A stretch of 64,000 nucleotides of DNA from positions 109,308-173,307 of IMG/VR virus record IMGVR_UViG_3300043395_001986. The stretch is one strand, 5' to 3'. The DNA is from a virus (taxonomy: Duplodnaviria > Heunggongvirae > Uroviricota > Caudoviricetes). Below the pieces are notes generated by a model that saw only the letters and a list, made by a program, of their open reading frames with translations, had not been told where the DNA came from and made no database searches. The position numbers and the translations under genes are program-made. Below, piece by piece: positions 37,954-54,313 of this stretch (within the stretch, counting starts at the first letter, position 1; each line of letters begins with the position of its first letter).

Positions 37954-38467
37954 TTTTATAAAAGCAGAAAAAGGTACAGCAGAAATGGCAAAAGCACTTC
38001 AACAGGCTTCTGCTATTATTGATTTGTATCCAGAAATATTTCCACACTTATATAAACAAAGTTTTAAGTTGGAAAAATATATTGAAAAGGGAGGTCTCAT
38101 ATTACAAGATGGAGTTGTTATTACATTTGGTAGATATGGTAGTAATGGTAAGATGAGCAGAAATGCTGTCACCTATAAAAAGAAAGGTGATTTTATTCTT
38201 CATCAAATTGCAAATATAGACCAGCATAACGGAAATGCTAAAGTAGTGTTATCCGACTTTATAGAATATTGTAAATCACAACACGCAGAAAATTTATTTC
38301 TGACAGTTAGAAAATATAATGATAAAGCGGTTAATTTTTATTATAGAAATGGATTTGTAAAAGATAGTGATATTCATTGGACATCTAAAAAAGATGGAAT
38401 TATTCCAGGCGTTGTTTTTAGATTAAGATTAGTTGCTGATAAAAATATTGAGACAGTATGTATTTAG
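37940..38467 (+). CDS. GNAT-family acyltransferase
   Basis: LHQIA...GNAKVVL...LTVRKYNDKAVNFYYRNGF. Confidence 0.8.
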   Translation: MNMLNFIKAEKGTAEMAKALQQASAIIDLYPEIFPHLYKQSFKLEKYIEKGGLILQDGVVITFGRYGSNGKMSRNAVTYKKKGDFILHQIANIDQHNGNAKVVLSDFIEYCKSQHAENLFLTVRKYNDKAVNFYYRNGFVKDSDIHWTSKKDGIIPGVVFRLRLVADKNIETVCI

Positions 38468-40805: not shown

Positions 40806-41567
40806 ATGAAAGTTTTATATTCAATTGGCGATTCAATCACATGGGGAGCAGAATTAAATGATAAACGAAATAGATTTTCGCGTATCATAGCAGATGAATT
40901 GGGATATATAGATTTTAATTGTGCAAGTAGTGGTATATCAAATGATAGAATATTTCGAAACACTATCAGAGATATATCTAAATTTTTAAATGGTAATAAA
41001 ATATCAAACGAAGAAATTGGTAGTATAAAAGCCAAAGATATATTTGTATTGGTTCAATTTACTACACCAACCCGTTTTGATTATTTTGATGGTGATGTAT
41101 TCCTACCAGAAAGATTTTGGGATAACGATAAATGGGGATATAAAGATATACATAGAGTTACCGATAATCCATATATTATAAACCAAACAGATGCAAGAGC
41201 ATCTTATGTTAGAATGTTTCAACAGGTACTTACATTAGACTCATTTTTAGAAAAAAATAATATACCACATCTTATAGTGAATGGTTTTGTGGATTTTGAT
41301 GAGAATGATTGTATATTATTTGATGCTAGAACATGTGAGGAAAAAATATTAAAGATATTTGATACTACTGATGACTACTTTGGATTACGAAATATGTACC
41401 ATTTGTTACCAACATCCTTTAAGGAGCCTTCTTTGTATAGAAATTTAGATAATAATTGTTTTGCAGAAAGAGGACATGCAAATAAAAAAGGAAACCTAAT
41501 TATTGGTGATGTTTTAATTAAAAAAATATATGATATTCTTAAACCAAAACGCAAAGCACAAAAATAA
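40806..41567 (+). CDS. SGNH/GDSL-like hydrolase
   Basis: IGDSITWG; G.SNDRI; C-terminal GHAN. Confidence 0.6.
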   Translation: MKVLYSIGDSITWGAELNDKRNRFSRIIADELGYIDFNCASSGISNDRIFRNTIRDISKFLNGNKISNEEIGSIKAKDIFVLVQFTTPTRFDYFDGDVFLPERFWDNDKWGYKDIHRVTDNPYIINQTDARASYVRMFQQVLTLDSFLEKNNIPHLIVNGFVDFDENDCILFDARTCEEKILKIFDTTDDYFGLRNMYHLLPTSFKEPSLYRNLDNNCFAERGHANKKGNLIIGDVLIKKIYDILKPKRKAQK

Positions 41568-42267
41568 AGAACTAAACTATATCCATACTCATAATACCGG
41601 AGACTCTATTCCATATAGAATAAATAATTTGGGATTTAGAGGAAAGGATTGGGAAGACGGAGAAGAAGGGCATATTCTATGTGTTGGCGATGCTTTAACT
41701 TTTGGTGTAGGTATTCCTCAAATAGAAACTTGGCCGGAAAAGTTAAGTAGAGATATTGGTACACATTATCACAATCTCAGCTGTTATGATTGGAGTAATG
41801 ACCATATTTGGTTTAATACAATGCAATATTTGCGAAGGGGCTGGGGATGGAAACCCGTCGCTATTTTTATTTTATGGACAATTTTTGATAGAAGATTCCA
41901 CTTTATGTCAGACAAAGATATTATGCATTTAGCCGTTCATAGTGGAAAGGGAAATCAATCACCAATACATACATCAATAACCGATGCCTATCTCTATATA
42001 AACAATGATGAAAACAATTCGGTTAATTTTAGTAAGAGTTTTTATTCACTAAAAGATTATTGTGAAACCGAAGGCATAGATTTCTATTGTGCGGGAGTTG
42101 TACCACAAAAAGCGAATTGGTTTGGTATAGAAATGAAGGATTTTAAGAATGAATATGAAACCTTTAAGGGTGGGGCTAAAGATGGGGTACATCCTGGTAG
42201 GGAATTTCATCAACATATTAGTGATTATTTTAGTACACAAATCATTGATAATCAACAAGTTAGATAA
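41530..42267 (+). CDS. SGNH/GDSL-like protein (catalytic Ser apparently replaced)
   Basis: INNLGFRG; VGDALTFG; DGVHPG. Confidence 0.55.
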   Translation: MIFLNQNAKHKNKELNYIHTHNTGDSIPYRINNLGFRGKDWEDGEEGHILCVGDALTFGVGIPQIETWPEKLSRDIGTHYHNLSCYDWSNDHIWFNTMQYLRRGWGWKPVAIFILWTIFDRRFHFMSDKDIMHLAVHSGKGNQSPIHTSITDAYLYINNDENNSVNFSKSFYSLKDYCETEGIDFYCAGVVPQKANWFGIEMKDFKNEYETFKGGAKDGVHPGREFHQHISDYFSTQIIDNQQVR

Positions 42268-42280
42268 AAAAACCACAAAA

Positions 42281-42313
42281 ATTTGGTGGTCTCAAAAAGA
42301 TTTCGTATCTTTG
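42281..42313 (+). promoter_or_regulatory. Bacteroidota-type sigma-A promoter
   Basis: ATTTGG...TCGTATCTTTG upstream of the phosphoesterase. Confidence 0.7.
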
Positions 42314-42332
42314 TTTATCAAAGTTAAATTTT

Positions 42333-43100
42333 ATGAGAATAACACATATTTCCGATACTCACAATAAACACAATCATTTAACGAATGATTTGCCGGGTGG
42401 AGATATATTAATTCACTCTGGCGACTTTACATCTATTGGTAGAGAAAGTGAAGTTAGAAACTTTATTAATTGGTTAAAATTAAGAACGAATTATACTCAT
42501 AAAATTTTCATAGCCGGAAATCACGATATAACATTCCAATCTGAAAAACTATTTAGATTGAAATCGGAGTGGTTTGATAGAAAAGTATATAGTGATGAAG
42601 GAGCGTTGGGTAGACCTGAATGGTTAGAAGAATTTCTTAAAAACGAATTAGATGACTCAATCATTTATTTGGAGAATAGTTCAGTAGAGATTGGTGGTAT
42701 CAAAATATGGGGCTCACCATACTCACCAACTTTTGGTAGAGATTGGGCGTTTAATGTGAATAGAGGGCATGATGCGGCTGAATTGTGGAGTCAAATACCC
42801 ACCGATACGGATGTTTTAATTACACATACTCCAATATACGGGTATTGTGATAGAACATACAACACAAATGAAAATGTAGGATGTGCCGATTTGTATCATA
42901 GAGTGCACGAAGTAAAACCACATTTACATTTTTCTGGCCATATACACGAAGCGCATGGTTGGGGAACTATACCTTATAGAGATGAATGGGGTGATACTTA
43001 CACCTTTAATGGAAGTAGTTGTAGTTTGGAATATTTTTATCAAAATAAACCAATTACATTAGATTATAATTTTGAAACAAGAGAATTGAATTTTATATAA
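42333..43100 (+). CDS. calcineurin-like metallophosphoesterase
   Basis: SDTH, GDFT, GNHD, THTP and GHIH motifs. Confidence 0.9.
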   Translation: MRITHISDTHNKHNHLTNDLPGGDILIHSGDFTSIGRESEVRNFINWLKLRTNYTHKIFIAGNHDITFQSEKLFRLKSEWFDRKVYSDEGALGRPEWLEEFLKNELDDSIIYLENSSVEIGGIKIWGSPYSPTFGRDWAFNVNRGHDAAELWSQIPTDTDVLITHTPIYGYCDRTYNTNENVGCADLYHRVHEVKPHLHFSGHIHEAHGWGTIPYRDEWGDTYTFNGSSCSLEYFYQNKPITLDYNFETRELNFI

Positions 43101-43582
43101 TGAAAGAGAGAATTTGGTTATTTTTAGACGACGTTAGAGTTCCTAATGATGAGAAATGGCAAGTAGTTAGAAGCTATGATGAATTAGTGGCTCATATCCG
43201 TTTGAATGGTTTAGAAAATTACGAAGTGATTTCATTGGACCACGATTTAGGATTTACTGCAATGGTAGAGTATTATACTAATGCAAAAGAAAATTATAAA
43301 ATAAACTACGATAACATACAGGAAAAAACTGGATTAGATTGTGCTAAATGGTTAGTAGCAGAAAGTATGAATACCGGTATTCCAATACCACAAGTATTTG
43401 TACATTCTGCTAACCCAATTGGTGCAGGAAATATTATCGGATATGTAAACAATTACTTAAAAAGTTTTTGTAAATTACCAATGGTATGTGTACAAACGCA
43501 TATACCACATCATATTCCAGAAGAGCATGTTCTAACGGAAGTAGAAAGGGAAGCACTTTGGAATGCTAAAAATAAAAAATAG
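43100..43582 (+). CDS. cyclic-phosphate-processing receiver-like domain protein
   Basis: LFLDDVR.P, ISLDHDLG, TGLDCAKWL and VHSANPIG motifs. Confidence 0.7.
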   Translation: MKERIWLFLDDVRVPNDEKWQVVRSYDELVAHIRLNGLENYEVISLDHDLGFTAMVEYYTNAKENYKINYDNIQEKTGLDCAKWLVAESMNTGIPIPQVFVHSANPIGAGNIIGYVNNYLKSFCKLPMVCVQTHIPHHIPEEHVLTEVEREALWNAKNKK

Positions 43583-43584
43583 TT

Positions 43585-43887
43585 ATGGCACCAAAAAAAG
43601 TAGAAGGTGATTTTCATATTGGAGATGGAGCACATTTGACGGTAAAAAGTTCTACTGTCGTAGAAATGCATGATTACCTAAAATTAATGACAGGAGATGG
43701 TAAAAGTGTTACTTTGGATGTAGTTATAAAAGCAGACTTCGATAAAATTCCACCACAATATCATCAGTTATTTTGTCAAATGATGATGGTAAGATATGGT
43801 GGTATGGTAAACATTTGGGATAATACACAACCATTCGCTAAACCAGAAACACCAAAGAAAAAATGGTATCAATTTTGGAAAAAATAA
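43585..43887 (+). CDS. hypothetical protein
   Basis: 100-aa ORF in an operon-like run. Confidence 0.7.
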   Translation: MAPKKVEGDFHIGDGAHLTVKSSTVVEMHDYLKLMTGDGKSVTLDVVIKADFDKIPPQYHQLFCQMMMVRYGGMVNIWDNTQPFAKPETPKKKWYQFWKK

Positions 43888-43896
43888 AACAAAGTT

Positions 43897-44109
43897 ATGG
43901 CAAAACCAGTATTCGTAATGAGATTTCGTAATTCCATGAGTGATGAAGAACAAAAGACTGTATCCGAAATAATATACAAATCGGATATGAATAATGAATA
44001 TCACATTATAGTATTAAAAAATGATAAAGATACTGATGAATTTGAAATGTTTAATGCAGATAAGATTGAAAGACAAGAATGGAATACTTTAATAAATAAA
44101 TTAAAATAA
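43897..44109 (+). CDS. hypothetical protein
   Basis: 70-aa ORF. Confidence 0.65.
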   Translation: MAKPVFVMRFRNSMSDEEQKTVSEIIYKSDMNNEYHIIVLKNDKDTDEFEMFNADKIERQEWNTLINKLK

Positions 44110-44277
44110 ATGATGTACGAAATAACACAATACATTGGGATTGGTATAATCGGAACAGGTCTTTGGATGGCCTTTGAAATTTGGCGAGCACCATTGATGG
44201 AAGAACAACCAGATGGAAGTTGGAAAACAATTAAGCCGGCTAAAAAACTATCGGATTTATTTAAACGAAAAAAATAG
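44110..44277 (+). CDS. small membrane protein (not in ORF track)
   Basis: 55 aa, MMYEITQYIGIGIIGTGLWMAFEIWRAPL...KRKK; fills the gap between neighbours. Confidence 0.6.
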   Translation: MMYEITQYIGIGIIGTGLWMAFEIWRAPLMEEQPDGSWKTIKPAKKLSDLFKRKK

Positions 44278-44281
44278 AGTT

Positions 44282-44503
44282 ATGATAATTAGTTATGTAA
44301 TAGGTATTGGTTGTAGTTTTATAATGGCTGCAATTATTTCATTCTTTTGGGTAAGAGGAATTGATAATATGAAAAAGAATTACCCAGATTATACAGGAGA
44401 AGATTTTTTGAATTGGGGAAATGATGATAAAAAGAGTGATAAAAAGGAAAGTGGTAGTTATAAAGACCTGGAAAAATTAGGTAGAGGACGTTCAAAATAT
44501 TAA
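44282..44503 (+). CDS. small membrane protein
   Basis: MIISYVIGIGCSFIMAAIISFFWV hydrophobic N-terminus. Confidence 0.6.
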   Translation: MIISYVIGIGCSFIMAAIISFFWVRGIDNMKKNYPDYTGEDFLNWGNDDKKSDKKESGSYKDLEKLGRGRSKY

Positions 44504-44507
44504 AATT

Positions 44508-44798
44508 ATGATACAATTTATTAAGAAAAATTACGGAAAATTAGGAATGAGTTTTGCATTAGTTATGCTAGTAATTAACTATTTCCAAAGACAAGAATTA
44601 GTACAATTAAGAAATAAACCAGAAGTTGTAGTTGGTGGTGATATTCAAAAAGCAGAATTAATTGATTCATTACAAGGCGAATTGTTTAATTCTCAAAACA
44701 TAAACGGCAGATATGAAATGAGTTTAGAGAATTTAAAAATGAAACACCCACAAGCAGCTGCAGATTTTATTTATTATATGGAGCACGAAACTGAATAA
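44508..44798 (+). CDS. hypothetical protein with N-terminal TM segment
   Basis: 96-aa ORF. Confidence 0.65.
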   Translation: MIQFIKKNYGKLGMSFALVMLVINYFQRQELVQLRNKPEVVVGGDIQKAELIDSLQGELFNSQNINGRYEMSLENLKMKHPQAAADFIYYMEHETE

Positions 44799-44809
44799 AA
44801 TTTTATAAT

Positions 44810-45187
44810 ATGGGAGAACAACATGTACCATTAACAATCAATGATGATGGATTGGTAACAAAAGTAGGACATGATATGGGTGGGTCCTATGAAATAAAAA
44901 CACCTAAATATGAACAATTAGAAATCCAATTTCCAAAGGTAGATGGAAATGGACAATCTATTTATGAAACGTGTATTATGTGTGGTAATGAAACTACTAC
45001 ATTAAAAAGTACACATATAGATTTTAGAACTGGATATGTAGAGGGAGCGGGACAACTATGTTGGGAGTGTTATACCGGTAAATCTAGGAGTCTTATTACA
45101 ATAGATGAAAGAACTATCATTGATACACCAAACGATGCAGAATTGGGTGCAAAGGTACGACAAATGTATTGGGATAGTAAATCATAA
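44810..45187 (+). CDS. hypothetical protein with CxxC...CxxC motifs
   Basis: CIMCG...GAGQLCWEC. Confidence 0.7.
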   Translation: MGEQHVPLTINDDGLVTKVGHDMGGSYEIKTPKYEQLEIQFPKVDGNGQSIYETCIMCGNETTTLKSTHIDFRTGYVEGAGQLCWECYTGKSRSLITIDERTIIDTPNDAELGAKVRQMYWDSKS

Positions 45188-45195
45188 TTATATAT

Positions 45196-45570
45196 GGGGA
45201 TGCCATGGAATTGATTGCAATGTAAATGGTAGTACCACACGTAGACAAAGGAAGAAAGTCTTTAAATACTTACAAAACAATAACTGACGAAATGTCAACA
45301 ATGACCTTTGATTCTTTAATGGAATTCATCGGCGCTGATTACGCAGTAGCTGCCTAATCACAATCGGGTCGGAATACATATAACCTAGGAACAGAAGTAT
45401 CTATAAAGGTGGAAAATTAACTGAACCCAAAATCGAGTTAAAATAATGATGGCGATGAATTATCAAAACTCGCCTAATTTGTAAGTTTTGATAAAATTTA
45501 CTAAACGTGTGATATGCTGGTATTATTAGTTCTTTGTAAGACAGGGGTTCGATTCCCCTCATCTCCACTA
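45196..45570 (+). ncRNA. ssrA: tmRNA
   Basis: 5' GGGGATG pairs with 3' CATCTCC-A (G3:U); T-arm GGGGTTCGATTCCCC; tag ORF 45286-45357 ends YAVAA*. Confidence 0.92.
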
Positions 45571-45746
45571 AAATTAAATAGTGTGGTATCTGATACTGAC
45601 AGCTCTTTGGGAGTGATGGGTGTGAAAGCAGATTGAAAAGGGTACGACCCAACCCCACACTATTTAATTTAAAAAAATATACAAATATTTTTGGAAAATT
45701 GAATTTTTTGTAGTATATTTGTATATATATAAAAACGAAATAACAT

Positions 45747-45818
45747 CGTGGCGTAGAGCAGAGGTAGCTCACAAGGCTCATAACCTTGGGGTCGCAGGTT
45801 CGAATCCCGCCGCCGCAA
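45747..45818 (+). tRNA. tRNA-fMet (CAT)
   Basis: C1:A72 mismatch; anticodon loop CTCATAA; TTCGAAT T-loop. Confidence 0.88.
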
Positions 45819-45919
45819 CAAATGTTAAGGTTGAAGCCATCAACTAATAAAACCGATTGAGTGACGTATGCAGTACGGAAGAAAGCCGGACACCTTAACA
45901 AAAAAAAAAACCCAAAGAA

Positions 45920-45952
45920 ATTTGGTAGTTTGAAAAAAGTATCGTATATTTG
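45920..45952 (+). promoter_or_regulatory. Bacteroidota-type sigma-A promoter
   Basis: ATTTGG...TCGTATATTTG upstream of the large ncRNA. Confidence 0.75.
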
Positions 45953-46029
45953 TATTGTTAAGTTTGAAACTTATAGGCAATGAAAGATACTCGGTATTCA
46001 AACTTTTAGTTCTTTAAAAGATTAAAAAT

Positions 46030-46565
46030 ACTTTACATAGTAGACTTGTTCTACATAGTAAACAACGGCCGCATATGGTCGTCAAATAAACTACGAAAGT
46101 AGGATAAAGTGGATTGTTAGGTTTACACAATCTGCGGTTTATAGGTCTTTGGACTTATGAGCTTGAGTATGCAAGTGGGGTATCATTTGAGCTTTGTACG
46201 AAAGGGTAACACTATATCGGAAGAGTTTGAATGACCGGGGTAAGTAGATACTTCGGTTGAGTTCGGAAGAACAATAAGAATAACTCATAGAACATCAGTA
46301 AGAAATATAACGCTAATCACTTTATACAATTGCGGTGTTCAATTCAAGAGGAGTCTTAAAACCAAGCCATCCGAAAGGACGTAAGGTATGTTAATGTACA
46401 GGTGGTGCTGTTATTAACCATTGATAAATCGTACCAACGATTATTGGTGAAGATTTCTTATAGAATGGTACTGACGATAGTACATCGGGTAGTTCAGTAT
46501 TCTCTCGACCAAAAGTTGAGGGAACTGGTTGGCAAACCGCTACCTGAACCCATCTACAAACCAAC
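46030..46565 (+). ncRNA. large ornate ncRNA, ROOL/GOLLD-like (family unconfirmed)
   Basis: ORF-poor; several GNRA-capped hairpins; long-range GTAGAT/ATCTAC pairing; upstream promoter; adjacent to tRNAs. Confidence 0.6.
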
Positions 46566-46614
46566 CCTTTTATCAAAATGAGGATTTTGACAATTCAATT
46601 TAAAAATAAAAGCT

Positions 46615-47245
46615 TAAGTGTTTGCCAGTTACGGACGAAAGATGTGTACATAGTAGGGAGCTGTTCCTTGCCACGATACCTTCGCAAGAGGTCTGTGATT
46701 CTTTAAAAAAACTTCTAACACCGCAAGTGTTAATCAGGTCGGCAGATTTGAAGAAGCGGAGTATAAAGAGAGTAAGACGTAACTCAAAGACTGATAGTCT
46801 CAAATCATCCACATTGTATCGGTACTACTCAAAAGGTAGTGGATAAGAAAGGAAACAATAATCTTTCTAAAGTCGGTACTCCCAATGAGGTAATCTCACT
46901 CATTTATTTTTTTACAATGGTTGTATATTGGTTCGATTCCAATAGTAAAAACAAATAGTCCGTTTGCAATAATAGCTCGAATAGTGAGAAAGAAGCAGTT
47001 AGGACTTTAACTAAACAACAAAACCTTTGAAACTATTCACAAGTATCGTGGTCATTTTAGCATAGAGTTCAGATGTGCGAACCTCTCAAGCAGTTTTAGA
47101 CCTAATAAAAAAACTAAAATGTAGCATAGATACATCCGGTTTTGTGGGGAAGTTTTAGACCAATAAATAAACGCAATCTATACGATATGATTGCCAGTTA
47201 TGTAGTAGGCCGCTATAAGAGAGAGCTGTTCCCCTTTTTCTCTCA
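46615..47245 (+). ncRNA. unassigned large structured ncRNA block(s)
   Basis: Multiple hairpins; duplicated TTGCCAGTTA/TAGTAGG/GAGCTGTTCC motif; no convincing ORF. Confidence 0.5.
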
Positions 47246-47350
47246 TTTTAAATGGCTAATTTGACGAGGCTAGTATTAACCAGAGCATGACTTGGATGGC
47301 GTATTTTGAAGTTAGATTAGCTTTTTTAAAAAAACTATATTTATTATAAG

Positions 47351-47446
47351 ATGATGAACTTGAATTTACATACGAATTGTTATCAACCGACGCTTAATGT
47401 GTGGGGTAGCATTATTATGTATAATTCAGGGGATATAAAAGGATAA
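47351..47446 (+). CDS. putative 31-aa leader peptide
   Basis: MMNLNLHTNCYQPTLNVWGSIIMYNSGDIKG*, between an ATATTTAT motif and a terminator. Confidence 0.45.
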   Translation: MMNLNLHTNCYQPTLNVWGSIIMYNSGDIKG

Positions 47447-47474
47447 TAGTATAGTAGATTATATAAATTATTTG

Positions 47475-47508
47475 AAAACCCTGACTTAAAAAAGTTGGGG
47501 TTTTTTTG
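47475..47508 (+). terminator. intrinsic terminator / attenuator before the tRNA array
   Basis: AAAACCCTGACT / AGTTGGGGTTTT stem followed by T7. Confidence 0.8.
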
Positions 47509-47515
47509 TTTATAG

Positions 47516-47589
47516 GCTTCTTTAGCTCAGCAGGTTAGAGCGACTGACTGTTAATCAGTAGGTCCTTGGTTCGAGCCCAAGAAGAAGCG
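47516..47589 (+). tRNA. tRNA-Asn (GTT)
   Basis: Cloverleaf; GCTTCTT/AAGAAGC acceptor stem. Confidence 0.93.
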
Positions 47590-47594
47590 CAATT

Positions 47595-47676
47595 GGGAGT
47601 ATTGTGTAGCGGCAATCACTGCGGACTGTAAATCCGCTCTCATTCGAGTTCGAAGGTTCGAGTCCTTCTACTCCCA
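47595..47676 (+). tRNA. tRNA-Tyr (GTA)
   Basis: Cloverleaf with long variable arm. Confidence 0.93.
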
Positions 47677-47682
47677 CAAAAA

Positions 47683-47754
47683 GCAGGTGTCGTATAATGG
47701 CCATTACTCCTTCCTTCCAAGTAGGAGACGGAGGTTCGATTCCTCTCACCTGCT
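47683..47754 (+). tRNA. tRNA-Gly (TCC)
   Basis: Cloverleaf; U73. Confidence 0.9.
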
Positions 47755-47759
47755 CAAAT

Positions 47760-47830
47760 TGCCTCTTTGTGTAATGGTAGCACAAAAGTTTTTGGTTCTT
47801 TTAGTTTAGGTTCGAATCCTAAAGAGGCAT
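47760..47830 (+). tRNA. tRNA-Gln (TTG)
   Basis: Cloverleaf; TGCCTCT/AGAGGCA acceptor stem. Confidence 0.88.
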
Positions 47831-47835
47831 CACTT

Positions 47836-47909
47836 TGGAATATAGCTCAATTGGTTAGAGCATCCGTCTGATACGCGGAAGGTTGTAGGTTCGAGTCCCA
47901 CTATTCCAA
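47836..47909 (+). tRNA. tRNA-Ile (GAT)
   Basis: Cloverleaf; anticodon loop CTGATAC. Confidence 0.9.
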
Positions 47910-47970
47910 CCGATGTTTTGTAGTAATGAGGTAAGGTTAAAACTGACATACATAATACAAAACATAAATT

Positions 47971-48041
47971 GCGGGTTTGGTGCAACGGCAGCATGTAAGT
48001 CTCCAAAACTTTTGATGGGAGTTCGAATCTCTCAACCCGTG
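47971..48041 (+). tRNA. tRNA-Trp (CCA)
   Basis: Cloverleaf; anticodon loop CTCCAAA. Confidence 0.88.
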
Positions 48042-48049
48042 CAAACAAT

Positions 48050-48122
48050 GGCTCTATGGTGAAATGGATTATCACGCAACGCTACGGACGTTGAATTTTG
48101 GGTTCGAATCCTAATGGGGCTA
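48050..48122 (+). tRNA. tRNA-Arg (ACG)
   Basis: Cloverleaf; anticodon loop CTACGGA. Confidence 0.9.
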
Positions 48123-48137
48123 CTAAAACAAAATGAT

Positions 48138-48401
48138 ATGAAAACATTTAAAGATTTGGAATTTAAATCTCACCCAATGGGTATGGGAGTAATAGCTAGA
48201 GAAGATTTTCATAATGGTTATGGAGTGACCGTTGTAAAAGGACCGCACACATATGGTGGAGATAAAGGATTATATGAATTGGCAGTTTGGAAAGATGGAA
48301 CAATTCATTACGATAATCCAGTTGCAATGGGAGATGTGGTTGGATATTTAAGAGAAGAAGATGTTACCGATGCTATTTTATTAGTTCAGAAATTTGAATA
48401 A
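48138..48401 (+). CDS. hypothetical protein within the tRNA array
   Basis: MKTFKDLEFKSHPMG...; ATG at 48138 lies outside tRNA-Arg. Confidence 0.75.
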   Translation: MKTFKDLEFKSHPMGMGVIAREDFHNGYGVTVVKGPHTYGGDKGLYELAVWKDGTIHYDNPVAMGDVVGYLREEDVTDAILLVQKFE

Positions 48402-48403
48402 AA

Positions 48404-48474
48404 GGCGAGTTGGCCGAGTGGTGAGGTGGAGCTCTGCAAAAGCTTTCACATAGGTTCGATTCCTATACTCGCCT
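48404..48474 (+). tRNA. tRNA-Cys (GCA)
   Basis: Cloverleaf; U73. Confidence 0.92.
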
Positions 48475-48480
48475 CAACAT

Positions 48481-48552
48481 GGTGGTTGTAGCCTAATGGT
48501 AGGGCGAAAGTTTGTGGCACTTTATGTGAGAGTTCGATTCTCTCCAATCACA
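48481..48552 (+). tRNA. tRNA-His (GTG)
   Basis: Cloverleaf; anticodon loop TTGTGGC; G-1 present. Confidence 0.88.
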
Positions 48553-48556
48553 CAAA

Positions 48557-48640
48557 GGAAGGATGGGTGAGGGGTTTAAACCAGCAGTTTACTAAACTGC
48601 CGACTCAAAAGGTCCGTGAGTTCGAATCTCACTCCTTCCG
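48557..48640 (+). tRNA. tRNA-Ser (ACT)
   Basis: GCAGT-TTACTAA-ACTGC anticodon arm; long variable arm; G73. Confidence 0.85.
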
Positions 48641-48641
48641 C

Positions 48642-48782
48642 ATGAAAACAAATAAATTTGAAACTAACAAAAGAGTAAATCGTATTGTTAGAATTAGAAA
48701 AATTATTAGAGAAAATGGAGCTTGTTTAATATGTGTGAGGAGATGGAATGGTGGAATTAAAAAATATAGAACAAACTGCTAA
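48642..48782 (+). CDS. small basic hypothetical protein
   Basis: 46-aa ORF from ATG 48642 between two tRNAs. Confidence 0.45.
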   Translation: MKTNKFETNKRVNRIVRIRKIIRENGACLICVRRWNGGIKKYRTNC

Positions 48783-48784
48783 AT

Positions 48785-48865
48785 ACCCCGTTGGTGGAAT
48801 TGGTAGACACGCTGGTTTTAGGCACCAGTGCGAAAGCATTAAGAGTTCGAGTCTCTTATGGGGTA
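48785..48865 (+). tRNA. tRNA-Leu (TAG)
   Basis: Cloverleaf with variable arm; A73. Confidence 0.92.
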
Positions 48866-48880
48866 CAAAAATAAAGTATT

Positions 48881-49336
48881 ATGAAATATAAACGGCTATT
48901 CGATAGTAAAGAAGTAGATTTAGTTGAATATGTAAAAGACTGGTTAGAGTTAAAACCAAATGCAGAAATACTGATTGGTTGTGACTCACAAAACTTTTCA
49001 GATAAAACGATATACGCTATTGTAGTGGCAATTTATGATGTGGGTAAAGGTGCACATGTTTTATATAATAGGTGGAAAACGAAAAGAGAACCAACTAGAA
49101 ATATTAGATTATTGAATGAAGTTTGGTATGCAGTTGAAACTGCCGAATATATGAAAAATGCAGGTATTCCTGAAGTTAAGTGGATTGATATAGATATTAA
49201 TCCAGACCCAAAATTCAAATCTAACGAAGTTTTAAGGCAAGCGGTGGGTTTAGTGGAAGGAATGGGATATAAGGTAAGATACAAAACTTTGGGACCTATT
49301 GCAACTTACGCAGCTGACCATTTAGTTAAAATTTAA
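48881..49336 (+). CDS. RNase H-like protein (DUF458/YkuK-like)
   Basis: ILIGCDSQ, RLLNEV and DIDIN acidic motifs; A..AAD C-terminus. Confidence 0.7.
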   Translation: MKYKRLFDSKEVDLVEYVKDWLELKPNAEILIGCDSQNFSDKTIYAIVVAIYDVGKGAHVLYNRWKTKREPTRNIRLLNEVWYAVETAEYMKNAGIPEVKWIDIDINPDPKFKSNEVLRQAVGLVEGMGYKVRYKTLGPIATYAADHLVKI

Positions 49337-49431
49337 ACTTTTTTAGTTTTTTGGGTAGCTGTAAAAAATTTTTTGGAGTTAAAAATTTTGCCACGTGCGA
49401 ATTTTATACTATATTTGTAACATACAAAACT

Positions 49432-49503
49432 GCTCGGTTGGACTAGGGGTTAGGTCACATCCCTTTCACGGATGTAGCACGGGTTCGAATCCCGTACCGA
49501 GTA
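49432..49503 (+). tRNA. tRNA-Glu (TTC)
   Basis: Cloverleaf; anticodon loop CTTTCAC. Confidence 0.92.
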
Positions 49504-49698
49504 CAAAGGTACACTATAATTCGGTCAAGCCACATTTAGCCGTTAGTGTATTGATAGGTAAGAGAAAAAGAAGTGGCTGGGACGTTTCTCTTACCGACCA
49601 TATAGGTTGATTGGAATTTGCCCATTGTGGCCAAATCGGTTAGAAATGCCAGTCGTAAAAGTAGATGTCCACGCACCCATCTTCTACTTTCCTAAATT

Positions 49699-49772
49699 GC
49701 CTTGATAGCTCAGTTGGCCAGAGCATCTGATTTGTAATCAGAGGGTCGTCAGTTCGAATCTGACTCGAGGCT
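49699..49772 (+). tRNA. tRNA-Thr (TGT)
   Basis: Cloverleaf; anticodon loop TTTGTAA. Confidence 0.92.
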
Positions 49773-49831
49773 CAAAAGGACTTAAATGGTCGAAGTACAA
49801 GACCGGTGTAGGTTAGTCCCACCTACAAAAA

Positions 49832-49905
49832 GGAGTGGTAGTTCAGTTGGTTAGAATGCTGCCCTGTCACGGCAGAGGTCGCGGGTTCGAGTCCCGTCCA
49901 CTCCG
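49832..49905 (+). tRNA. tRNA-Asp (GTC)
   Basis: Cloverleaf; G73. Confidence 0.94.
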
Positions 49906-50148
49906 CAAACACAATTAGGTTGTATATGCAATTAGCTCGGCAACCTTTTACACCTGAAGATGTGAGATGGTTGTGTTTTAAAGTTGTTCTATACACTTAA
50001 CACGCTTAGTAACAAAGCAAGGCACATAGAGTTACATAGAAGCATGGAGTAATTACCCAACGCTACATTCGGACTACAAATGTGATTAAGTTCAGACGTT
50101 GTAGAGAAAGAGATGTTAAGAGTAAACTTGCAAGTTAGAACAACTAAT

Positions 50149-50220
50149 GGACTCATAGTTAAATGGATATAACTACTGCCTTCTAAGCAGTTATTGGTAG
50201 TTCGATTCTACCTGAGTCTA
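50149..50220 (+). tRNA. tRNA-Arg (TCT)
   Basis: Cloverleaf; anticodon loop CTTCTAA. Confidence 0.9.
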
Positions 50221-50225
50221 CAAAT

Positions 50226-50299
50226 TGGGAAATAGCGCAGTCCGGTAGCGTACTTGGTTTGGGACCAAGGGGTCGCAGGTTCGAATCCTGTTTTCCCAA
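50226..50299 (+). tRNA. tRNA-Pro (TGG)
   Basis: Cloverleaf; anticodon loop TTTGGGA. Confidence 0.92.
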
Positions 50300-50358
50300 C
50301 ATAATATTTGGTAGTTTAAAAAAATTATCTTATATTTGTAAAAGTTATTTGATAAGCA

Positions 50359-50443
50359 GCCTTGGTGTTGGAATTGGTAGACAAGACAGACTTAAAATCT
50401 GTTTCGCTGAAAGCGAGTGCGGGTTCGATTCCCGCCTGAGGCA
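50359..50443 (+). tRNA. tRNA-Leu (TAA)
   Basis: Cloverleaf with variable arm. Confidence 0.92.
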
Positions 50444-50463
50444 CGGACGGAAAAACCAAAGTT

Positions 50464-50537
50464 GGGGAAGTAGCTCAGTTGGCTAGAGCATCTGCCTTGC
50501 ACGCAGAGGGTCATGGGTTCGACTCCCTTCTTCTCCA
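50464..50537 (+). tRNA. tRNA-Ala (TGC)
   Basis: G3:U70 pair; anticodon loop CTTGCAC. Confidence 0.93.
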
Positions 50538-50543
50538 CAATAT

Positions 50544-50649
50544 GCCGGAGTGGCGGAAAGAGATGTGTACAATCTTGAGACGTTCCTATTCTAGAGTGGT
50601 GGGGTAACCGAAAAGGACCCCGTGAAGTTAACCAATACTTCCTCCGGCA
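50544..50649 (+). ncRNA. tRNA-like RNA with intact acceptor stem and aberrant core
   Basis: GCCGGAG/CTCCGGC-A-CC ends; no canonical D-arm or T-loop. Confidence 0.55.
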
Positions 50650-50704
50650 CCTTATGGGCTTTGGTGATATAGCCATAAAGAGAGATAGATGTTTCTCATT
50701 CACT

Positions 50705-50740
50705 AAAATAGGTAGGTGTTTCCACCACCTGCTTATTTTT
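50705..50740 (+). terminator. terminator-like hairpin within the array
   Basis: AAAATAGGTAGGTG / CACCTGCTTATTTT. Confidence 0.55.
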
Positions 50741-50743
50741 ATT

Positions 50744-50818
50744 GGACCTGTAGCTCAGTTGGTTAGTAGCACCTGACTCATAATCAGGGGGTCATAGGTT
50801 CAAGTCCTATCGGGTCCA
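50744..50818 (+). tRNA. tRNA (CAT), elongator Met or Ile2
   Basis: Fully paired G1-C72; anticodon loop CTCATAA. Confidence 0.88.
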
Positions 50819-50847
50819 CAAATTATTAAAATTTAAAACATAAAACT

Positions 50848-51123
50848 ATGGAATTTTTTGGTTATTATTATTTGATTTGTTTGGTGTATTGTTTGTATAT
50901 GTCATTCAAAAAATGGAACAGAGATGTTAAAACAGGTGGGTTAGGTATTTCACCTGGTTTAGACACAATGGCTATGTTGATTATGTGTTGGGCATTGGCT
51001 CCAATTGATATATTTTTGACATGGGTTAGGGTCTATAAAGAAGCAGAAGAAGCTAGAAGAAATCAAAGTAAATTTGAAATGGATACTAAAGATTTCGAAA
51101 AAGAAAAAGGTAATATCTATTAA
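50848..51123 (+). CDS. small membrane protein
   Basis: Two hydrophobic segments and a charged tail. Confidence 0.7.
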
Positions 51124-51130
51124 TATAACA

Positions 51131-51215
51131 GGAGAGATGGCAGAGTGGTTGAATGCACCGGTCTTGAAAACCGGCATACTGAAAGGTATCTGGGGTTCGA
51201 ATCCCTGTCTCTCCG
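51131..51215 (+). tRNA. tRNA-Ser (TGA)
   Basis: Cloverleaf; long variable arm; G73. Confidence 0.94.
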
Positions 51216-51311
51216 CAAATTTGGAGCACGAAGAACTAACATAATCGGAGTGCTTAACCCATAAGTTGATTAAATTCAATTATAAGGTTTCCAGTGAGTT
51301 AGTTCAAAAAT

Positions 51312-51471
51312 TGTAAGGTGGTGAAATTGTGCACACATCGGCAGACACACCCACTCGTCTCGTGGGCGCTGAGTTTGAAATAGGTAAATGAATATGGGTT
51401 GACCACAAAGCCGGCTATTTTGTTCTTTACTGAATCACAGCATGAAGGTTCGATTCCTTCCCTTACAGCCA
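51312..51471 (+). ncRNA. 160-nt tRNA-like RNA with expanded D-loop and about 77-nt variable region
   Basis: TGTAAGG/CCTTACA-G-CCA; T-arm GAAGGTTCGATTCCTTC; CCCAC-TCGTCTC-GTGGG arm. Confidence 0.7.
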
Positions 51472-51484
51472 AAATACTATATTT

Positions 51485-52051
51485 ATGAGTATGAGAATTA
51501 AACTATTTGTTGCATTACCAAGTGAGTTTCCAATAGAAAAAGCACCATTAGGAGTAGATGTTATTTATACAGGAGTTGGTAAAATAAACGCAGCAATTAA
51601 AGCTACTCAAACATTAGAAAATTTATCACCAGCAGATACTATTGTTATTAATTATGGAAGTGCAGGTGGACATATCACTATGATTAATAGTTTGTTTAAA
51701 TGTAAAAACTTTGTCCAAAGGGATATGGATGCAAGACCATTTGCTAAAAAAACAATTACACCATTTGATGAAGTTGTTTGGAATAAATTAAATTTAGTAA
51801 ATGATTCAATTGATTTTAACGGATTAGGATATCATACTTGTCATACACAAGACCGATTTGAAACATCACCAAATAGAATTTCCGATATGGAAGCATACTC
51901 AATCGCAAAAGTATGTAAGATTTATGGATTTGATTTTACAGCATACAAATATATAAGTGATAGTGGTAATCACAAAGATTGGTCAGAAAATCACAATAAA
52001 GGGATTGAATTATTTTTAGAACAATTAAAAAAAGATTTTAAAATAGGATAA
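51485..52051 (+). CDS. purine nucleoside phosphorylase / MTA-SAH nucleosidase-like protein
   Basis: TGVGKINAA, INYGSAGG, DMEAYSIA and KYISD motifs. Confidence 0.8.
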   Translation: MSMRIKLFVALPSEFPIEKAPLGVDVIYTGVGKINAAIKATQTLENLSPADTIVINYGSAGGHITMINSLFKCKNFVQRDMDARPFAKKTITPFDEVVWNKLNLVNDSIDFNGLGYHTCHTQDRFETSPNRISDMEAYSIAKVCKIYGFDFTAYKYISDSGNHKDWSENHNKGIELFLEQLKKDFKIG

Positions 52052-53262
52052 TGGTTATAGAATACAACTTAAATGAAAGTTACGAAGGTGGTTTAAATTT
52101 TTTTGTTTATCAACAAAATTGTTGCACAAGAGAGGAAGCAATGTATTTTTTATTAAGTAATAATTTTGAACTTAATAAAGATTTTGTAATGCAAGACAAT
52201 ATACATCATTACAAAAAAATAGGTCTAAAATTAAATACGGAAGATTATATTAATCTTATATGGGTATCTAGAAATCAAGATAGTATTTCAAATTATGCAG
52301 CCGAAGGAATACATTTCATAAATGTATATGATTACAATCCGGCAGTTAGAGAAGGATTAGAAAAATATGCAGTTTCATCCGATAAACATGTTTATATAAT
52401 AAATTCTACATACGGCGAAGGTGGATGTATCTATGAAGATATTATGAAAATATATTCGGATAGAAATTTGAGAGGATACCATGCAACTGATAAAGTACAC
52501 TATAAAGATACACCTGGATTTATATATGATTTCGGCCTAACCGCTAGAAGATTTTTTGCATCTTCTGTACTACATAAATTACCAAAGCATGTTTTTGATG
52601 CAAAAGATAAATCTAAAAGATTTATTTTCTCTATGAGAAAAATATCATTTCAATGGAGACAAGCATTTTACAAAGTTTTAATCAAACACAAGGCATTAAA
52701 TAATCCAAAGTTTTTGGTTACTATGGCTAATATGGTGGATGATAATAAACGATATATGGACTCAAGATTTACAATGATTGATGAAACATATGGTGGGTTT
52801 TCGTTCCCAAATAATCAGGTTAAAGAAGCATGTTGGATTAAAAAATTAAGAGATGTTGAGTTTATGGGTAGAATTGATGCGGTTTTTGAATCAAATAACA
52901 TCCCACCAAATGAAACTAAAATACCAGATGGTAATTTCTTAACTGAAAAAACTTTTAATTATCTATTTAACGAATTACCATTCTTATATGTTTCAAATCA
53001 TTGTCATTTAATTCTTAAAAATGCAAAATTAGATGATTATTCGGAAGTATGGGGATTAGATTTTAATCATCCAGATTTTAATAATCATGTTTTGGATAGA
53101 ATAGATGAATTATGTAATTTATCTGATGAAGAGTTTGAAGAAGTAGTTGCTAAAGCAGAAATTGTTGCAACTAAAAATTATAAAAGATTTTTGGAATTAG
53201 TTTCCGAAGACCCGTTACCTAAATTTATACGATTATACAATGGTGAAGCATTTAATAACTAG
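52051..53262 (+). CDS. hypothetical protein, possibly glycosyltransferase-like
   Basis: 403 aa; FLTEKT...PFL motif; weak. Confidence 0.45.
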   Translation: MVIEYNLNESYEGGLNFFVYQQNCCTREEAMYFLLSNNFELNKDFVMQDNIHHYKKIGLKLNTEDYINLIWVSRNQDSISNYAAEGIHFINVYDYNPAVREGLEKYAVSSDKHVYIINSTYGEGGCIYEDIMKIYSDRNLRGYHATDKVHYKDTPGFIYDFGLTARRFFASSVLHKLPKHVFDAKDKSKRFIFSMRKISFQWRQAFYKVLIKHKALNNPKFLVTMANMVDDNKRYMDSRFTMIDETYGGFSFPNNQVKEACWIKKLRDVEFMGRIDAVFESNNIPPNETKIPDGNFLTEKTFNYLFNELPFLYVSNHCHLILKNAKLDDYSEVWGLDFNHPDFNNHVLDRIDELCNLSDEEFEEVVAKAEIVATKNYKRFLELVSEDPLPKFIRLYNGEAFNN

Positions 53263-54283
53263 TGGGTGTTCATTTACTCGTTTAAAGCATCCATATGTTG
53301 GAAGTGATATACATAAAAGAAATTCAGCTAAAGAAGATACTGAAACATATTATACATATGCTCATCATTTAGCTAAAAAATATAATTTAGAATTACATAA
53401 CGAAGGATTTCCAACATTTGATAATGGTGGAATTGTTAATACAATTATACAAAGAGTTAATAAGCTATTAAAGAATGGAATAGCAACTGATGAAATTTTT
53501 GTGATTGCTCAATTCACAACTTCTGTTAGATATTCATTTTTAGTAGATAAGAATTTAAGTATATTAAGAGATTATGATGTTTCAAAAGTAGGTATAGGAC
53601 ATACTGCTAATTATTTAGATGAAGGGCAATCTTATTATGATAATGGATATGCTTTTTTAGGAAGTGGGTCACCACCATTACAAAACCAAGCTCAAAATAG
53701 ATTTAATAAAATATATGATGGTTTATTAGATGAAACGAATGCAACATTTTTAATGATAAAAAACATACATCATCTGCAAACATTTCTAAAATCAAAAGGA
53801 ATTAAATATGTTTGCTTTTTTATGTTAAATCAATTAGTTGATAACTCATATTATCCATTCAATCATCATAGAGATTTTAAATATTATAATGAAAATTGGA
53901 GCGATTTAAAATTTGGAGAATTGGCTTCTAAAAAATTCATACCATACAATAGAGAAAATACAGAAATTTGGAATAATTTCAATAATCAATATTGGAAAAT
54001 ATTTTTAGATGATATTGATTTTGGACCATTTTGGTTTTTTAATAATGAAGCAACAAAATATTCTGGAGTATTCGAATGGTCTTTTTCTAAATTTAATAAA
54101 GATGAATTGTTGTATACTTGGCACGAAGAAGAAAGTTCAGAATGTAAAACAAAAGATGAATTAATTAATTGGTTAAATAAAGTAGGATTTCAGGGGTATC
54201 ACCCATCGGCAGAATTGTGGAAAATATTTGTAGAAGAAGAATTAATACCACATATAAATAAAACACATCCTAATATTTTTTAA
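53240..54283 (+). CDS. SGNH-like hypothetical protein
   Basis: LITSGCSFT N-terminus; YHPS near the C-terminus. Confidence 0.5.
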   Translation: MVKHLITSGCSFTRLKHPYVGSDIHKRNSAKEDTETYYTYAHHLAKKYNLELHNEGFPTFDNGGIVNTIIQRVNKLLKNGIATDEIFVIAQFTTSVRYSFLVDKNLSILRDYDVSKVGIGHTANYLDEGQSYYDNGYAFLGSGSPPLQNQAQNRFNKIYDGLLDETNATFLMIKNIHHLQTFLKSKGIKYVCFFMLNQLVDNSYYPFNHHRDFKYYNENWSDLKFGELASKKFIPYNRENTEIWNNFNNQYWKIFLDDIDFGPFWFFNNEATKYSGVFEWSFSKFNKDELLYTWHEEESSECKTKDELINWLNKVGFQGYHPSAELWKIFVEEELIPHINKTHPNIF

Positions 54284-54313
54284 TTCGGATTTTTTTTAGT
54301 ATATTTGTTATAT

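Follow-up and report, generated by a model that had tools for sequence, protein, structure and literature searches.

A phage translation-support RNA island with a GOLLD RNA, tRNA-like RNAs and a putative leader-peptide attenuator ahead of its largest tRNA block

The stretch of DNA analysed here, referred to as the window, comprises 64,000 nucleotides (nt) of a freshwater phage genome and corresponds to bases 109308-173307 of a 237,307-bp IMG/VR virus record (IMGVR_UViG_3300043395_001986), which is rated complete by CheckV, is of jumbo size, has a GC content of 30% and carries 228 of its 239 long open reading frames (ORFs) on the plus strand. An RNA island at positions 45196-51471 of the window contains one transfer-messenger RNA (tmRNA) and 21 tRNAs, and a scan of all 237,307 bp established that these are the genome's entire tRNA/tmRNA set. 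The tRNAs were located by ARAGORN between 45747 and 51216, all on the plus strand, and all 22 tRNA/tmRNA genes passed the Rfam gathering threshold, so that both programs bear out the tmRNA and the 21 canonical tRNAs named in an original prediction for this DNA. Together these genes cover only 1,976 of the 6,276 island bases; therefore, most of the island consists of other content. The preferred reading, to which a probability of roughly 0.7 is given, is that this is the phage's single translation-support RNA island, composed of short promoter-driven units, with the largest tRNA block placed behind a leader attenuator. The units would be the tmRNA; tRNA-Met; an abundant GOLLD RNA co-transcribed with a ~204-nt RNA and a ~67-nt hairpin RNA; and a tRNA array that also holds two tRNA-like RNAs (tl1 and tl2), three small protein genes, including one for an RNase H-like protein, and a 168-nt element. 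The features that form the backbone of the island are as follows.

45196-45568 (ARAGORN) or to 45570 (Rfam), plus strand: tmRNA; RF00023 over the full model, 79.5 bits against a cut-off of 47
45691-45723, plus strand: promoter-like site (TTTG, ~19 nt, TAnnTTTG) ahead of tRNA-Met; motif
45747-45819, plus strand: tRNA-Met(CAT), the upstream neighbour of GOLLD; ARAGORN and Rfam
45921-45954, plus strand: promoter of the GOLLD unit (33-nt motif); motif enrichment
46007-46484, plus strand: GOLLD 5' domain, with a conserved core from ~46065; homology and covariation
46485-46902, plus strand: GOLLD 3' domain, the universally conserved half; RF02032 model positions 1-416 of 416, 269.1 bits against a cut-off of 150, E 1e-75
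46903-47254, plus strand: post-GOLLD companion block, with a T-arm remnant (46928-46942), an RNA (~46976-47179) and a conserved 3' part; homology and RNA contigs
47255-47327, plus strand: pgC, a structured RNA of ~67 nt (47255-47321) and a T-run; 13 homologues, 11 of 21 pairs with compensatory changes
47339-47515, plus strand: putative leader attenuator (promoter-like site, ORF, antiterminator segment, terminator); terminator scan, alignment and profile
47516-48866, plus strand: tRNA block I, behind the attenuator: Asn, Tyr, Gly, Gln, Ile, Trp, Arg(ACG), a 95-amino-acid ORF, Cys, His, Ser(ACT), Leu(TAG); ARAGORN and Rfam
49388-49419, plus strand: promoter-like site ahead of tRNA-Glu; motif
49432-50300, plus strand: tRNA block II: Glu, Thr, Asp, Arg(TCT), Pro, with spacers 49505-49698 and 49907-50148; ARAGORN and Rfam
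50308-50340, plus strand: second copy of the 33-nt promoter motif, ahead of tRNA-Leu(TAA); exact pattern match
50359-51216, plus strand: tRNA block III: Leu(TAA), Ala, tl1, Met, a 91-amino-acid ORF, Ser(TGA); ARAGORN and Rfam

When GenBank phages were searched with the island by megablast, short tRNA matches only were returned; relatives were therefore drawn from IMG/VR, and the comparison set consisted of 80 related loci anchored on the PF04308 RNase H-like gene and labelled L002, L004 and so on. The gene order tmRNA, tRNA-Met, GOLLD, tRNA array is common to close relatives, most of which also have tRNA-Met followed by GOLLD; in distant relatives, the RNase H-like gene precedes both GOLLD and the tmRNA, and the order and content of the blocks vary among relatives.

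The promoters were recognized by a motif, TATATTTGTA, that occurs 12 times in the window against 1.0 expected and whose plus-strand copies have TTTG ~19 nt upstream, giving the pattern TTTG, ~19 nt, TAnnTTTG; sites in the window include 28497, 29286, 37901, 41039, 45714, 45945, 49410, 50331 and 56849. A 33-nt version of the motif has exactly two matches (0 expected), one ahead of GOLLD and the other ahead of tRNA-Leu(TAA). Since promoters recur along the island, it is a chain of short promoter-driven units and not a single operon. TTTG-N19-TAnnTTTG is the consensus of the Bacteroidota primary sigma factor, and Shine-Dalgarno sequences are lacking at the phage genes of the window; because of these two properties, the host of the phage is presumed to belong to the Bacteroidota.

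The tmRNA encodes a tag of 23 residues ending in YAVAA (ARAGORN), which is kept in relatives. SmpB (PF01668) was not found in the phage genome, and the phage tmRNA would have to rely on the SmpB of the host. Tags differ widely among the relatives L023, L058, L065 and L074, which include a host-like GEYNYAIAA, a 20-residue GNVYNNMEVAGLLATSKVAA and the 23-residue tag of the window phage. Among the tRNAs, Val, Phe and Lys species are absent from the window phage and present in its closest relative, L002. The phage's codons mostly end in A or U and most of its tRNA anticodons have U34; these tRNAs would lessen the dependence of phage translation on the host tRNA pool. The genome uses 185 TAA, 23 TGA and 20 TAG stop codons, and the genetic code is therefore standard. 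Two further observations concern serine: the gene at 48557-48641 encodes a tRNA-Ser with the unusual anticodon ACT (A34), shared with L002, and the genome has no tRNA-Ser(GCT), yet AGT makes up 31% of its Ser codons.

The gap between tRNA-Met and tRNA-Asn spans 1,696 nt (45820-47515) and contains the promoter, GOLLD, the 3' companion block and the leader/terminator. The original prediction had placed about 1.3 kb of structured, ORF-poor sequence here and had assigned it a scaffold function; such a stretch is present and corresponds to GOLLD and its companions, but its true length is 1,696 nt, and the long structured RNA is a known family and not a new scaffold. Beyond the full-length match to RF02032, more than 60 IMG/VR loci have GOLLD 5' flanks homologous to the 480 nt that precede this match, with homology beginning at ~46007 in close relatives and at ~46065 in all; 81 of the 105 consensus pairs in this 5' domain carry compensatory changes (39 non-redundant sequences; covariation figures throughout are RNAalifold counts of predicted pairs with compensatory changes). 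The 3' boundary is fixed because a tRNA begins 8-15 nt past the end of the RF02032 model in five relatives. GOLLD accordingly extends from ~46007/46065 to 46902, roughly 840-900 nt. In the GOLLD RNA env-38, a conserved 3' region (residues 421-833) adjoins a less conserved 5' region of ~420 nt, and a closed 14-mer nanocage was resolved by cryo-electron microscopy, the cage being known for env-38 alone (bioRxiv 10.1101/2024.12.08.627333 / PMC12286853); the 416-position Rfam model agrees in size with the 3' region of env-38. GOLLD RNAs are found in phages near tRNA islands, env-38 lies downstream of a Met-tRNA, and expression rises during lysis (PMC12286853). The window RNA is a member of this family (RF02032; Weinberg et al. 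2009): it is phage-borne, lies in a tRNA island after tRNA-Met, comes from fresh water (lakes and rivers) and is highly expressed.

What is new beside GOLLD is a pair of conserved companions in the same unit, the ~204-nt RNA and the ~67-nt terminal hairpin RNA, together with environmental RNA evidence. The 613-nt segment from GOLLD to tRNA-Asn is 86% identical in L002 and 78% identical in L004 and L005, where a tRNA-Gly is inserted first, and is absent from L018, L022 and L025. The 204-nt RNA (46976-47179) is built of two tandem units, each with TAGCATAGA, a hairpin and then AGTTTTAGACC-AATAAA. A stable fold for this RNA was considered and dropped, with a z-score of -0.6 (z-scores compare the folding of segments with that of shuffles) and ~5 homologues, which are too few for covariation. 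Likewise, a pairing of GOLLD 46671-46679 with a 9-nt complement at 47042-47050 was rejected, since the GOLLD side is invariant and the partner carries two mismatches in L004 and L009. The covarying pgC element, which has no Rfam match (searched to E 1), probably forms the 3' end, or the terminator, of the unit transcribed with GOLLD. A second GOLLD or any other Rfam family was not detected to E 1 in 46903-47515 or in the spacers, save for antisense-tRNA artefacts; the scores of YrlA, sX4 and manA there were weak and far below their cut-offs. At the position of the T-arm remnant (46928-46942), L009 (6806-6900) and L011 (70-170) carry a complete tRNA-like element with a long variable arm and no ARAGORN call. 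The pgC RNA also occurs 4-5 kb upstream of the RNase H-like gene in the distant relatives L044, L062, L066 and L074.

Sequence words of the island were found in freshwater and river metagenomes of 22 coded studies and in six metatranscriptome runs, and Logan contigs of four river metatranscriptomes, which may belong to one campaign, were placed on 41000-55000. Flanking protein genes were represented by contigs with 0-3 mismatches at depths of 2-6 (e.g., 43090-43369, 44463-44763 and 54309-54572), and because these near-identical contigs come from the same libraries, the organism is taken to be present in the runs. Contigs identical to GOLLD had depths of 718-836 (46395-46559) and 784 (46705-46867), and contigs running from 46966, 46976 or 46978 to 47179 reached 972-1200 in three runs, with an Illumina adapter abutting 46976. 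GOLLD and a discrete RNA of ~204 nt therefore appear to be some two hundred times more abundant than the neighbouring genes, where depth is one figure per contig, summed bins include relatives, and contigs are silent on strand and on absence. Relatives in the same RNA runs lack one unit of the 204-nt RNA (joint 47041->47126). GOLLD is among the largest bacterial and phage RNAs without a known function, and dozens of its natural variants, all in a fixed context, are available in this phage family; the conserved companions, and environmental data pointing to very high RNA levels, are handles on its role.

Islands of this composition could also be a mobile tRNA/GOLLD cassette, as in mycobacteria, kept by drift or selfish spread and not for phage translation. 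GOLLD-bearing tRNA arrays do move between mycobacteria and phages, and the differences in block order and content among relatives, together with the loss of tRNA-Val, tRNA-Phe and tRNA-Lys in the window phage, would fit such a history. However, domain and family searches of the proteins in and beside the island revealed no integrase, transposase or homing endonuclease; the RNA structures are under strong purifying selection with compensatory changes, the anticodons fit the codon usage of the phage, and the RNA is highly abundant, so that a selfish cassette is highly improbable. GOLLD/tRNA/tmRNA islands as such are already known. Phage tRNA/tmRNA arrays and mycobacterial GOLLD-tRNA arrays (PMC6582537; Morgado et al. 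2020) likewise cluster at least 20 tRNAs with a tmRNA, GOLLD and pseudo- or odd tRNAs; unlike these arrays, the present island belongs to another phage lineage (GC 30%, Bacteroidota-type promoters), is divided into promoter-driven blocks, one of which lies behind a putative leader attenuator, and has a PF04308 gene. Its unusual components are the attenuator family, two unnamed tRNA-like RNA families, the abundant GOLLD companions, and the PF04308 and phosphoesterase/receiver partners described below.

The putative attenuator lies directly ahead of tRNA block I. In the window, a promoter-like TATATTTAT (47339-47347) precedes a 31-codon ORF (47351-47446) that contains the antiterminator segment (47425-47432); the terminator (47474-47505, -13.6 kcal/mol, with a T7 run) follows 27 nt after the ORF, and tRNA-Asn begins at 47516, 10 nt downstream. 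With a profile made from seven homologues, 23 distinct full-length copies were recovered. The ORF is intact in all 23 loci, at 31-53 codons and despite indels, where the chance of an open frame is 0.014-0.078 per locus, and a strong terminator (about -14 to -21 kcal/mol) is present in every one, with compensatory changes in relatives. Furthermore, the last codons of the ORF hold a 7-10-bp segment complementary to the 5' arm of the terminator in these 23 loci, and the segment and the arm co-vary in six versions: CCCCTAAC/GTTAGGGG, CCTCTAAC/GTTAGAGG, CCCTGAC/GTCAGGG, CCCCTTAAC/GTTAAGGG, CCCGAAC/GTTCGG and CCCGGAC/GTTCGG. When compared with 500 dinucleotide shuffles of the upstream sequence, the pairing energy was reached by 0-8 shuffles in 15 of the 23 loci and by no more than 32 in any. 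The segment ends 6-23 nt ahead of the stop codon (most commonly 14), and the terminator arm begins 16-33 nt past it. A tRNA lies downstream in 22 of the 23 loci, namely Asn at 7-22 nt (16 loci), Leu(TAA) at 47-85 nt (five) and Gly at 105 nt (one); the interval that separates terminator and tRNA is too short for a promoter, and transcription of the array must therefore pass the terminator. The attenuator-like leader that had been noticed from the window alone is thus borne out as a conserved and covarying leader/terminator.

Leaders that precede tRNA-Asn in relatives contain all 20 amino acids within 38-52 residues (P 0.001-0.016 per peptide). Another type of leader (MMNLVYIQQPSNNPLSGNGRGIYLC...), which has a canonical promoter, is present in L048, L056, L043, L053, L059, L050 and L044 and absent from the window; 29 of its 33 residues are amino acids of the tRNA block behind it (Leu-Arg-Pro-Asn-Leu-Tyr-Ile-Met-Gly-Gly-Gln-Ser; P 2e-5). 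By their composition, the leaders of the relatives look like decoding probes.

The same region could be read as an ordinary small-protein gene (47351-47446) with its own terminator, in an island that is constitutively expressed; the complementarity would then serve the stability or translation of that gene's mRNA. This would account for the conservation of the peptide's N-terminus (xLHTNCYQP) and, in relatives, of its C-terminus (KLEDTDVG), the composition of the window peptide is not unusual, and the tRNA blocks from 49432 and 50359 have promoters and no leader. However, a tRNA lies directly behind the ORF-terminator unit in 22 of 23 loci, where a constitutive terminator would silence the array; the segment within the ORF covaries with the terminator arm across the six variants; the conserved C-terminal residues coincide with that pairing segment; and the leaders of relatives either hold all 20 amino acids or match the tRNA block. 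With this evidence, a constitutive island is considered unlikely.

Several properties of the window copy nevertheless weigh against attenuation, and with it against the preferred reading of the island. It is the shortest and weakest copy, with an ORF of just 31 codons, and its antiterminator pairing is limited to 6 perfect bp (-10.9 kcal/mol) and is equalled by 28 of 500 shuffles. With 16 kinds of amino acid, the peptide has an ordinary composition (P 0.22); it covers 14 of the 17 amino acids served by the array, and it includes Val and Lys codons for which the phage has no matching tRNA. A role of the leader at the RNA level is possible because the N-terminal codons are conserved also at synonymous sites. 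Ahead of the window leader there is no more than a promoter-like site, and transcription of the GOLLD unit may read through into it. Contig cover of the tRNA blocks was low or nil (tl2 had a depth of 6-10); tRNAs are poorly captured by RNA sequencing, so this implies no absence and the contig depths are uninformative on read-through at the attenuator. In view of the comparative data, the attenuation mechanism is likely for the family and plausible, but weaker, for the window phage.

Leader-peptide transcription attenuators control amino-acid operons (trpL, hisL, leuL, thrL, ilvL, pheL). The present architecture is that of a trp/his-type attenuator, in that a short ORF, an intrinsic terminator and an ORF-proximal segment able to pair alternatively with the terminator 5' arm are combined, and the geometry is such that a ribosome near the stop codon would mask the antiterminator. 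It differs from the trpL type in that the regulated genes would be phage tRNAs, no single run of regulatory codons is present, no 1:2 hairpin was identified, and the phage mRNA is apparently near-leaderless. In the mechanism proposed, the leader ORF would be translated while RNA polymerase nears the intrinsic terminator; a fast ribosome would cover the segment within the ORF, the terminator would form and transcription would stop, whereas slow decoding (e.g., when a charged tRNA is scarce) would let the segment pair with the 5' arm of the terminator, and polymerase would read into the tRNA genes. We infer that the leader is translated and that termination is conditional, and likewise in which direction the switch works and to which physiological signal it responds. 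If this is true, phages would regulate their tRNA supply by feedback from translation, and the means by which large phages withstand the depletion of host tRNAs or defences that target tRNAs would be explained. To our knowledge, the logic of translation-feedback attenuation is so far known only for amino-acid and synthetase genes. In a full-text literature search, no publication turned up that describes phage tRNA genes under leader-peptide attenuation.

The tRNA-like RNAs, and the protein genes within and upstream of the island, are listed here.

42333-43100, plus strand: Metallophos (calcineurin-like metallophosphoesterase) gene; PF00149, 57 bits against a cut-off of 21.5, E 5e-15; phrog_1649
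43100-43582, plus strand: cREC_REC gene, overlapping the end of Metallophos; PF20274, 73.7 bits against a cut-off of 27, E 2e-20
48114-48401, plus strand: 95-amino-acid ORF in block I; phrog_4074, conserved in relatives
48881-49336, plus strand: RNase H-like gene, PF04308 (YkuK/DUF458); 69 bits against a cut-off of 25, E 5e-19
50544-50651, plus strand: tl1; 12 homologues, 10 of 23 pairs with compensatory changes
50848-51123, plus strand: ORF for a 91-amino-acid membrane-like protein in block III; conserved in 26 of 80 loci
51312-51471, plus strand: tl2; 28 distinct homologues in related loci, 26 of 35 pairs with compensatory changes

Both tRNA-like RNAs, which had been described earlier as malformed tRNAs, exist and are conserved with compensatory changes. 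The acceptor stem of tl1 measures 7 bp; the RNA also has a D-arm into which a hairpin of variable form is inserted, an extra arm, a non-canonical T-loop and an anticodon-like stem of 2-3 bp that bears a conserved UCUAGA loop. It is always situated between tRNA-Ala or tRNA-Tyr and tRNA-Met, and follows the upstream tRNA by 1-7 nt in 10 of 15 loci. The UCUAGA loop brought up an amber-suppressor tRNA, which was rejected, as tl1 lacks a proper anticodon stem and TAG serves as a stop in the standard code of this genome. In tl2, a 7-bp acceptor stem is combined with a canonical T-arm (GGTTCGAATCC), a D-arm that may hold a hairpin insert, and a 'variable arm' of ~80 nt that covaries. Its 5-bp anticodon-like stem carries a conserved loop, YNGUCUC, which differs by one base from the loop CUGUCAC of tRNA-Asp; position 37 is a pyrimidine and, in the window copy, position 33 is C, where tRNAs have U33 and a purine at 37. 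Hidden Markov model (HMM) searches added 43 further tl2 copies in other IMG/VR contigs, so that tl2 occurs on at least 70 phage contigs; a loose DNA pattern gave many unrelated loci, and the count was limited to the 43 confirmed by HMM. The tl2 RNA sits 2-10 nt after tRNA-Ser in 22 of 36 loci and ends ~30 nt ahead of the RNase H-like gene in ~20 loci.

Neither RNA matched an Rfam family, with RF00005 included up to E 1, and neither scored as a member of the tRNA family; tl1 received no ARAGORN call, and the settings of ARAGORN had to be relaxed before it reported tl2, which it then named 'Lys(ctt) with an 81-nt insert'. As they are spaced like tRNAs, both are probably excised by RNase P and RNase Z. 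These data show that tl1 and tl2 are conserved functional RNAs placed like tRNAs, judging by their covariation and position. The closest precedent known to us lies in the tRNA cluster of phage T4, which encodes the stable RNAs C and D (species 1 and 2), tRNA-like small RNAs. Compared by description only, RNAs C and D resemble tl1 and tl2 in being tRNA-like, in lying among phage tRNA genes and, presumably, in being processed as tRNAs are; tl2 differs from them by its ~80-nt variable arm and tRNA-Asp-like loop, and tl1 by its near-absent anticodon stem and non-canonical T-loop.

A phosphoesterase/receiver pair upstream of the island and an RNase H-like gene inside it had also been noted, and were identified as Metallophos with cREC_REC and as PF04308, respectively. 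The PF04308 gene lies inside or beside tRNA arrays in all 80 related loci. Its family (YkuK/DUF458) is predicted to be RNase H-like (PMC3985635), and residues D35, E70, E86, E89, D103 and D105 are invariant in 32 sequences. A search of PDB sequences with the RNase H-like profile gave no match, and matches came from the fold search only: an AlphaFold2 (AF2) model with a predicted local distance difference test (pLDDT) score of 85.6 had RNase H1, reverse transcriptase (RT)-RNase H, the C-terminal half of UvrC and EndoV as its best Foldseek matches, at template-modelling (TM) scores of 0.4-0.5. The position of this predicted nuclease next to tl2 suggests that RNA of the array may be its substrate.

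In 42 of the 80 loci, a Metallophos homologue was present no more than 10 kb from the RNase H-like gene, mostly directly downstream of the tRNA array, and cREC was beside Metallophos in 18 of 80. The fold of the cREC domain is that of a divergent receiver, for which hydrolysis of 2',3'-cyclic phosphates has been proposed, both in RNA repair and in NAD/ADP-ribose (ADPr) conflicts (Iyer et al. 2021, PMC7824862). Like the jumbo-phage systems described in that work, the window has a stand-alone cREC beside a phosphoesterase; unlike them, the pair is linked to a tRNA island, and the RNA ligases RtcB and Rnl2 were not found in the genome, which leaves the repair pathway incomplete and is a further point against the preferred reading. 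A search for Rnl1 was silent in the phage genome and likewise in its control genomes. Because this cREC stands alone without an output domain and is a predicted cyclic-phosphate hydrolase, it is regarded as an enzyme and not a signalling module, and the Metallophos-cREC pair would probably comprise RNA-end-processing or repair enzymes that work on the island RNAs, not a sensor.

This bears directly on the model of the original prediction, in which damage to tRNAs is detected by the phosphoesterase/receiver pair, which then turns the island on, the malformed tRNAs act as decoys for host anticodon nucleases and the long structured RNA is a scaffold. The linkage of Metallophos (42 of 80) and cREC (18 of 80) to the island in relatives, the strongly conserved tRNA-Asp-like loop of tl2 (CUGUCUC against CUGUCAC), and the tRNA-like spacing of tl1 and tl2, by which they are probably processed alike, would all be consistent with it. 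However, besides the absence of an output domain from the PF20274 protein, Metallophos-cREC is found at the opposite side of the island in relatives and has no architecture of a regulatory kind, the supposed scaffold is GOLLD, a family with its own solved closed-cage structure, and the leader attenuator is a different and better-supported sensor; the model is therefore judged improbable. The broader proposal, a regulated module that senses tRNA loss and supplies tRNAs, fared better: comparative evidence was obtained for a translation-sensing leader switch, whereas the phosphoesterase/receiver pair is not the sensor. In addition, the elements were found to co-occur in related phages, and the non-tRNA RNAs covary and appear in metatranscriptomes; for this reason, the results run opposite to those named beforehand as speaking against the prediction.

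An extension of the preferred reading, the translation-support island, would make it a module for 'translation autonomy', in which the leader, by sampling many or all amino acids, gauges ribosome speed and opens the terminator ahead of the tRNA genes once decoding slows (e.g., when host tRNAs have been depleted or cleaved), tl1 and tl2 (the latter with U37 in its tRNA-Asp-like loop) are non-decoding mimics that occupy or titrate tRNA-directed host enzymes and are handled by PF04308 and Metallophos-cREC, and the GOLLD cage with the equally abundant 204-nt RNA forms a further layer. This extension is offered as a tentative and rather doubtful possibility, and the roles it gives to GOLLD, the tRNA-like RNAs and the nuclease are ones that we infer. 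The tl1 and tl2 families, the PF04308 nuclease and Metallophos-cREC are recurrent, unexplained partners of phage tRNA arrays.

The remaining elements of the island lie in its spacers.

45571-45670, plus strand: long hairpin with a perfect 16-bp base, directly behind the tmRNA; inverted repeat, z -4.8 (45569-45672), conserved only in L015
49981-50148, plus strand: 168-nt ultra-conserved element between tRNA-Asp and tRNA-Arg(TCT); z -2.3

In addition to these, the spacers 47912-47970 (z -2.7), 50656-50743 (z -3.9) and 51217-51311 (z -2.5) are structured. At least six structured spacers had been proposed; five fold clearly better than shuffles, but four others (45820-45905, 48642-48784, 49505-49698 and 49774-49831), with z-scores of -0.5 to -1.7, are unremarkable and do not stand out as structured. 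The 168-nt element has no Rfam match (to E 1) and is 90-95% identical in loci whose proteins are just 55-80% identical; it yields no covariation because it is too conserved. Within the spacer ahead of the second tRNA-Met(CAT), a strong terminator-like hairpin followed by five Us (50705-50743) ends 1-5 nt before the tRNA and is conserved only in L012; no conserved leader ORF was seen with this hairpin. Outside the island, 36496-39690 holds an AsnB-like amidotransferase gene (PF00733), a small ORF and a methyltransferase-like gene, in this order and with overlapping ends; they follow a ribonucleotide reductase gene.

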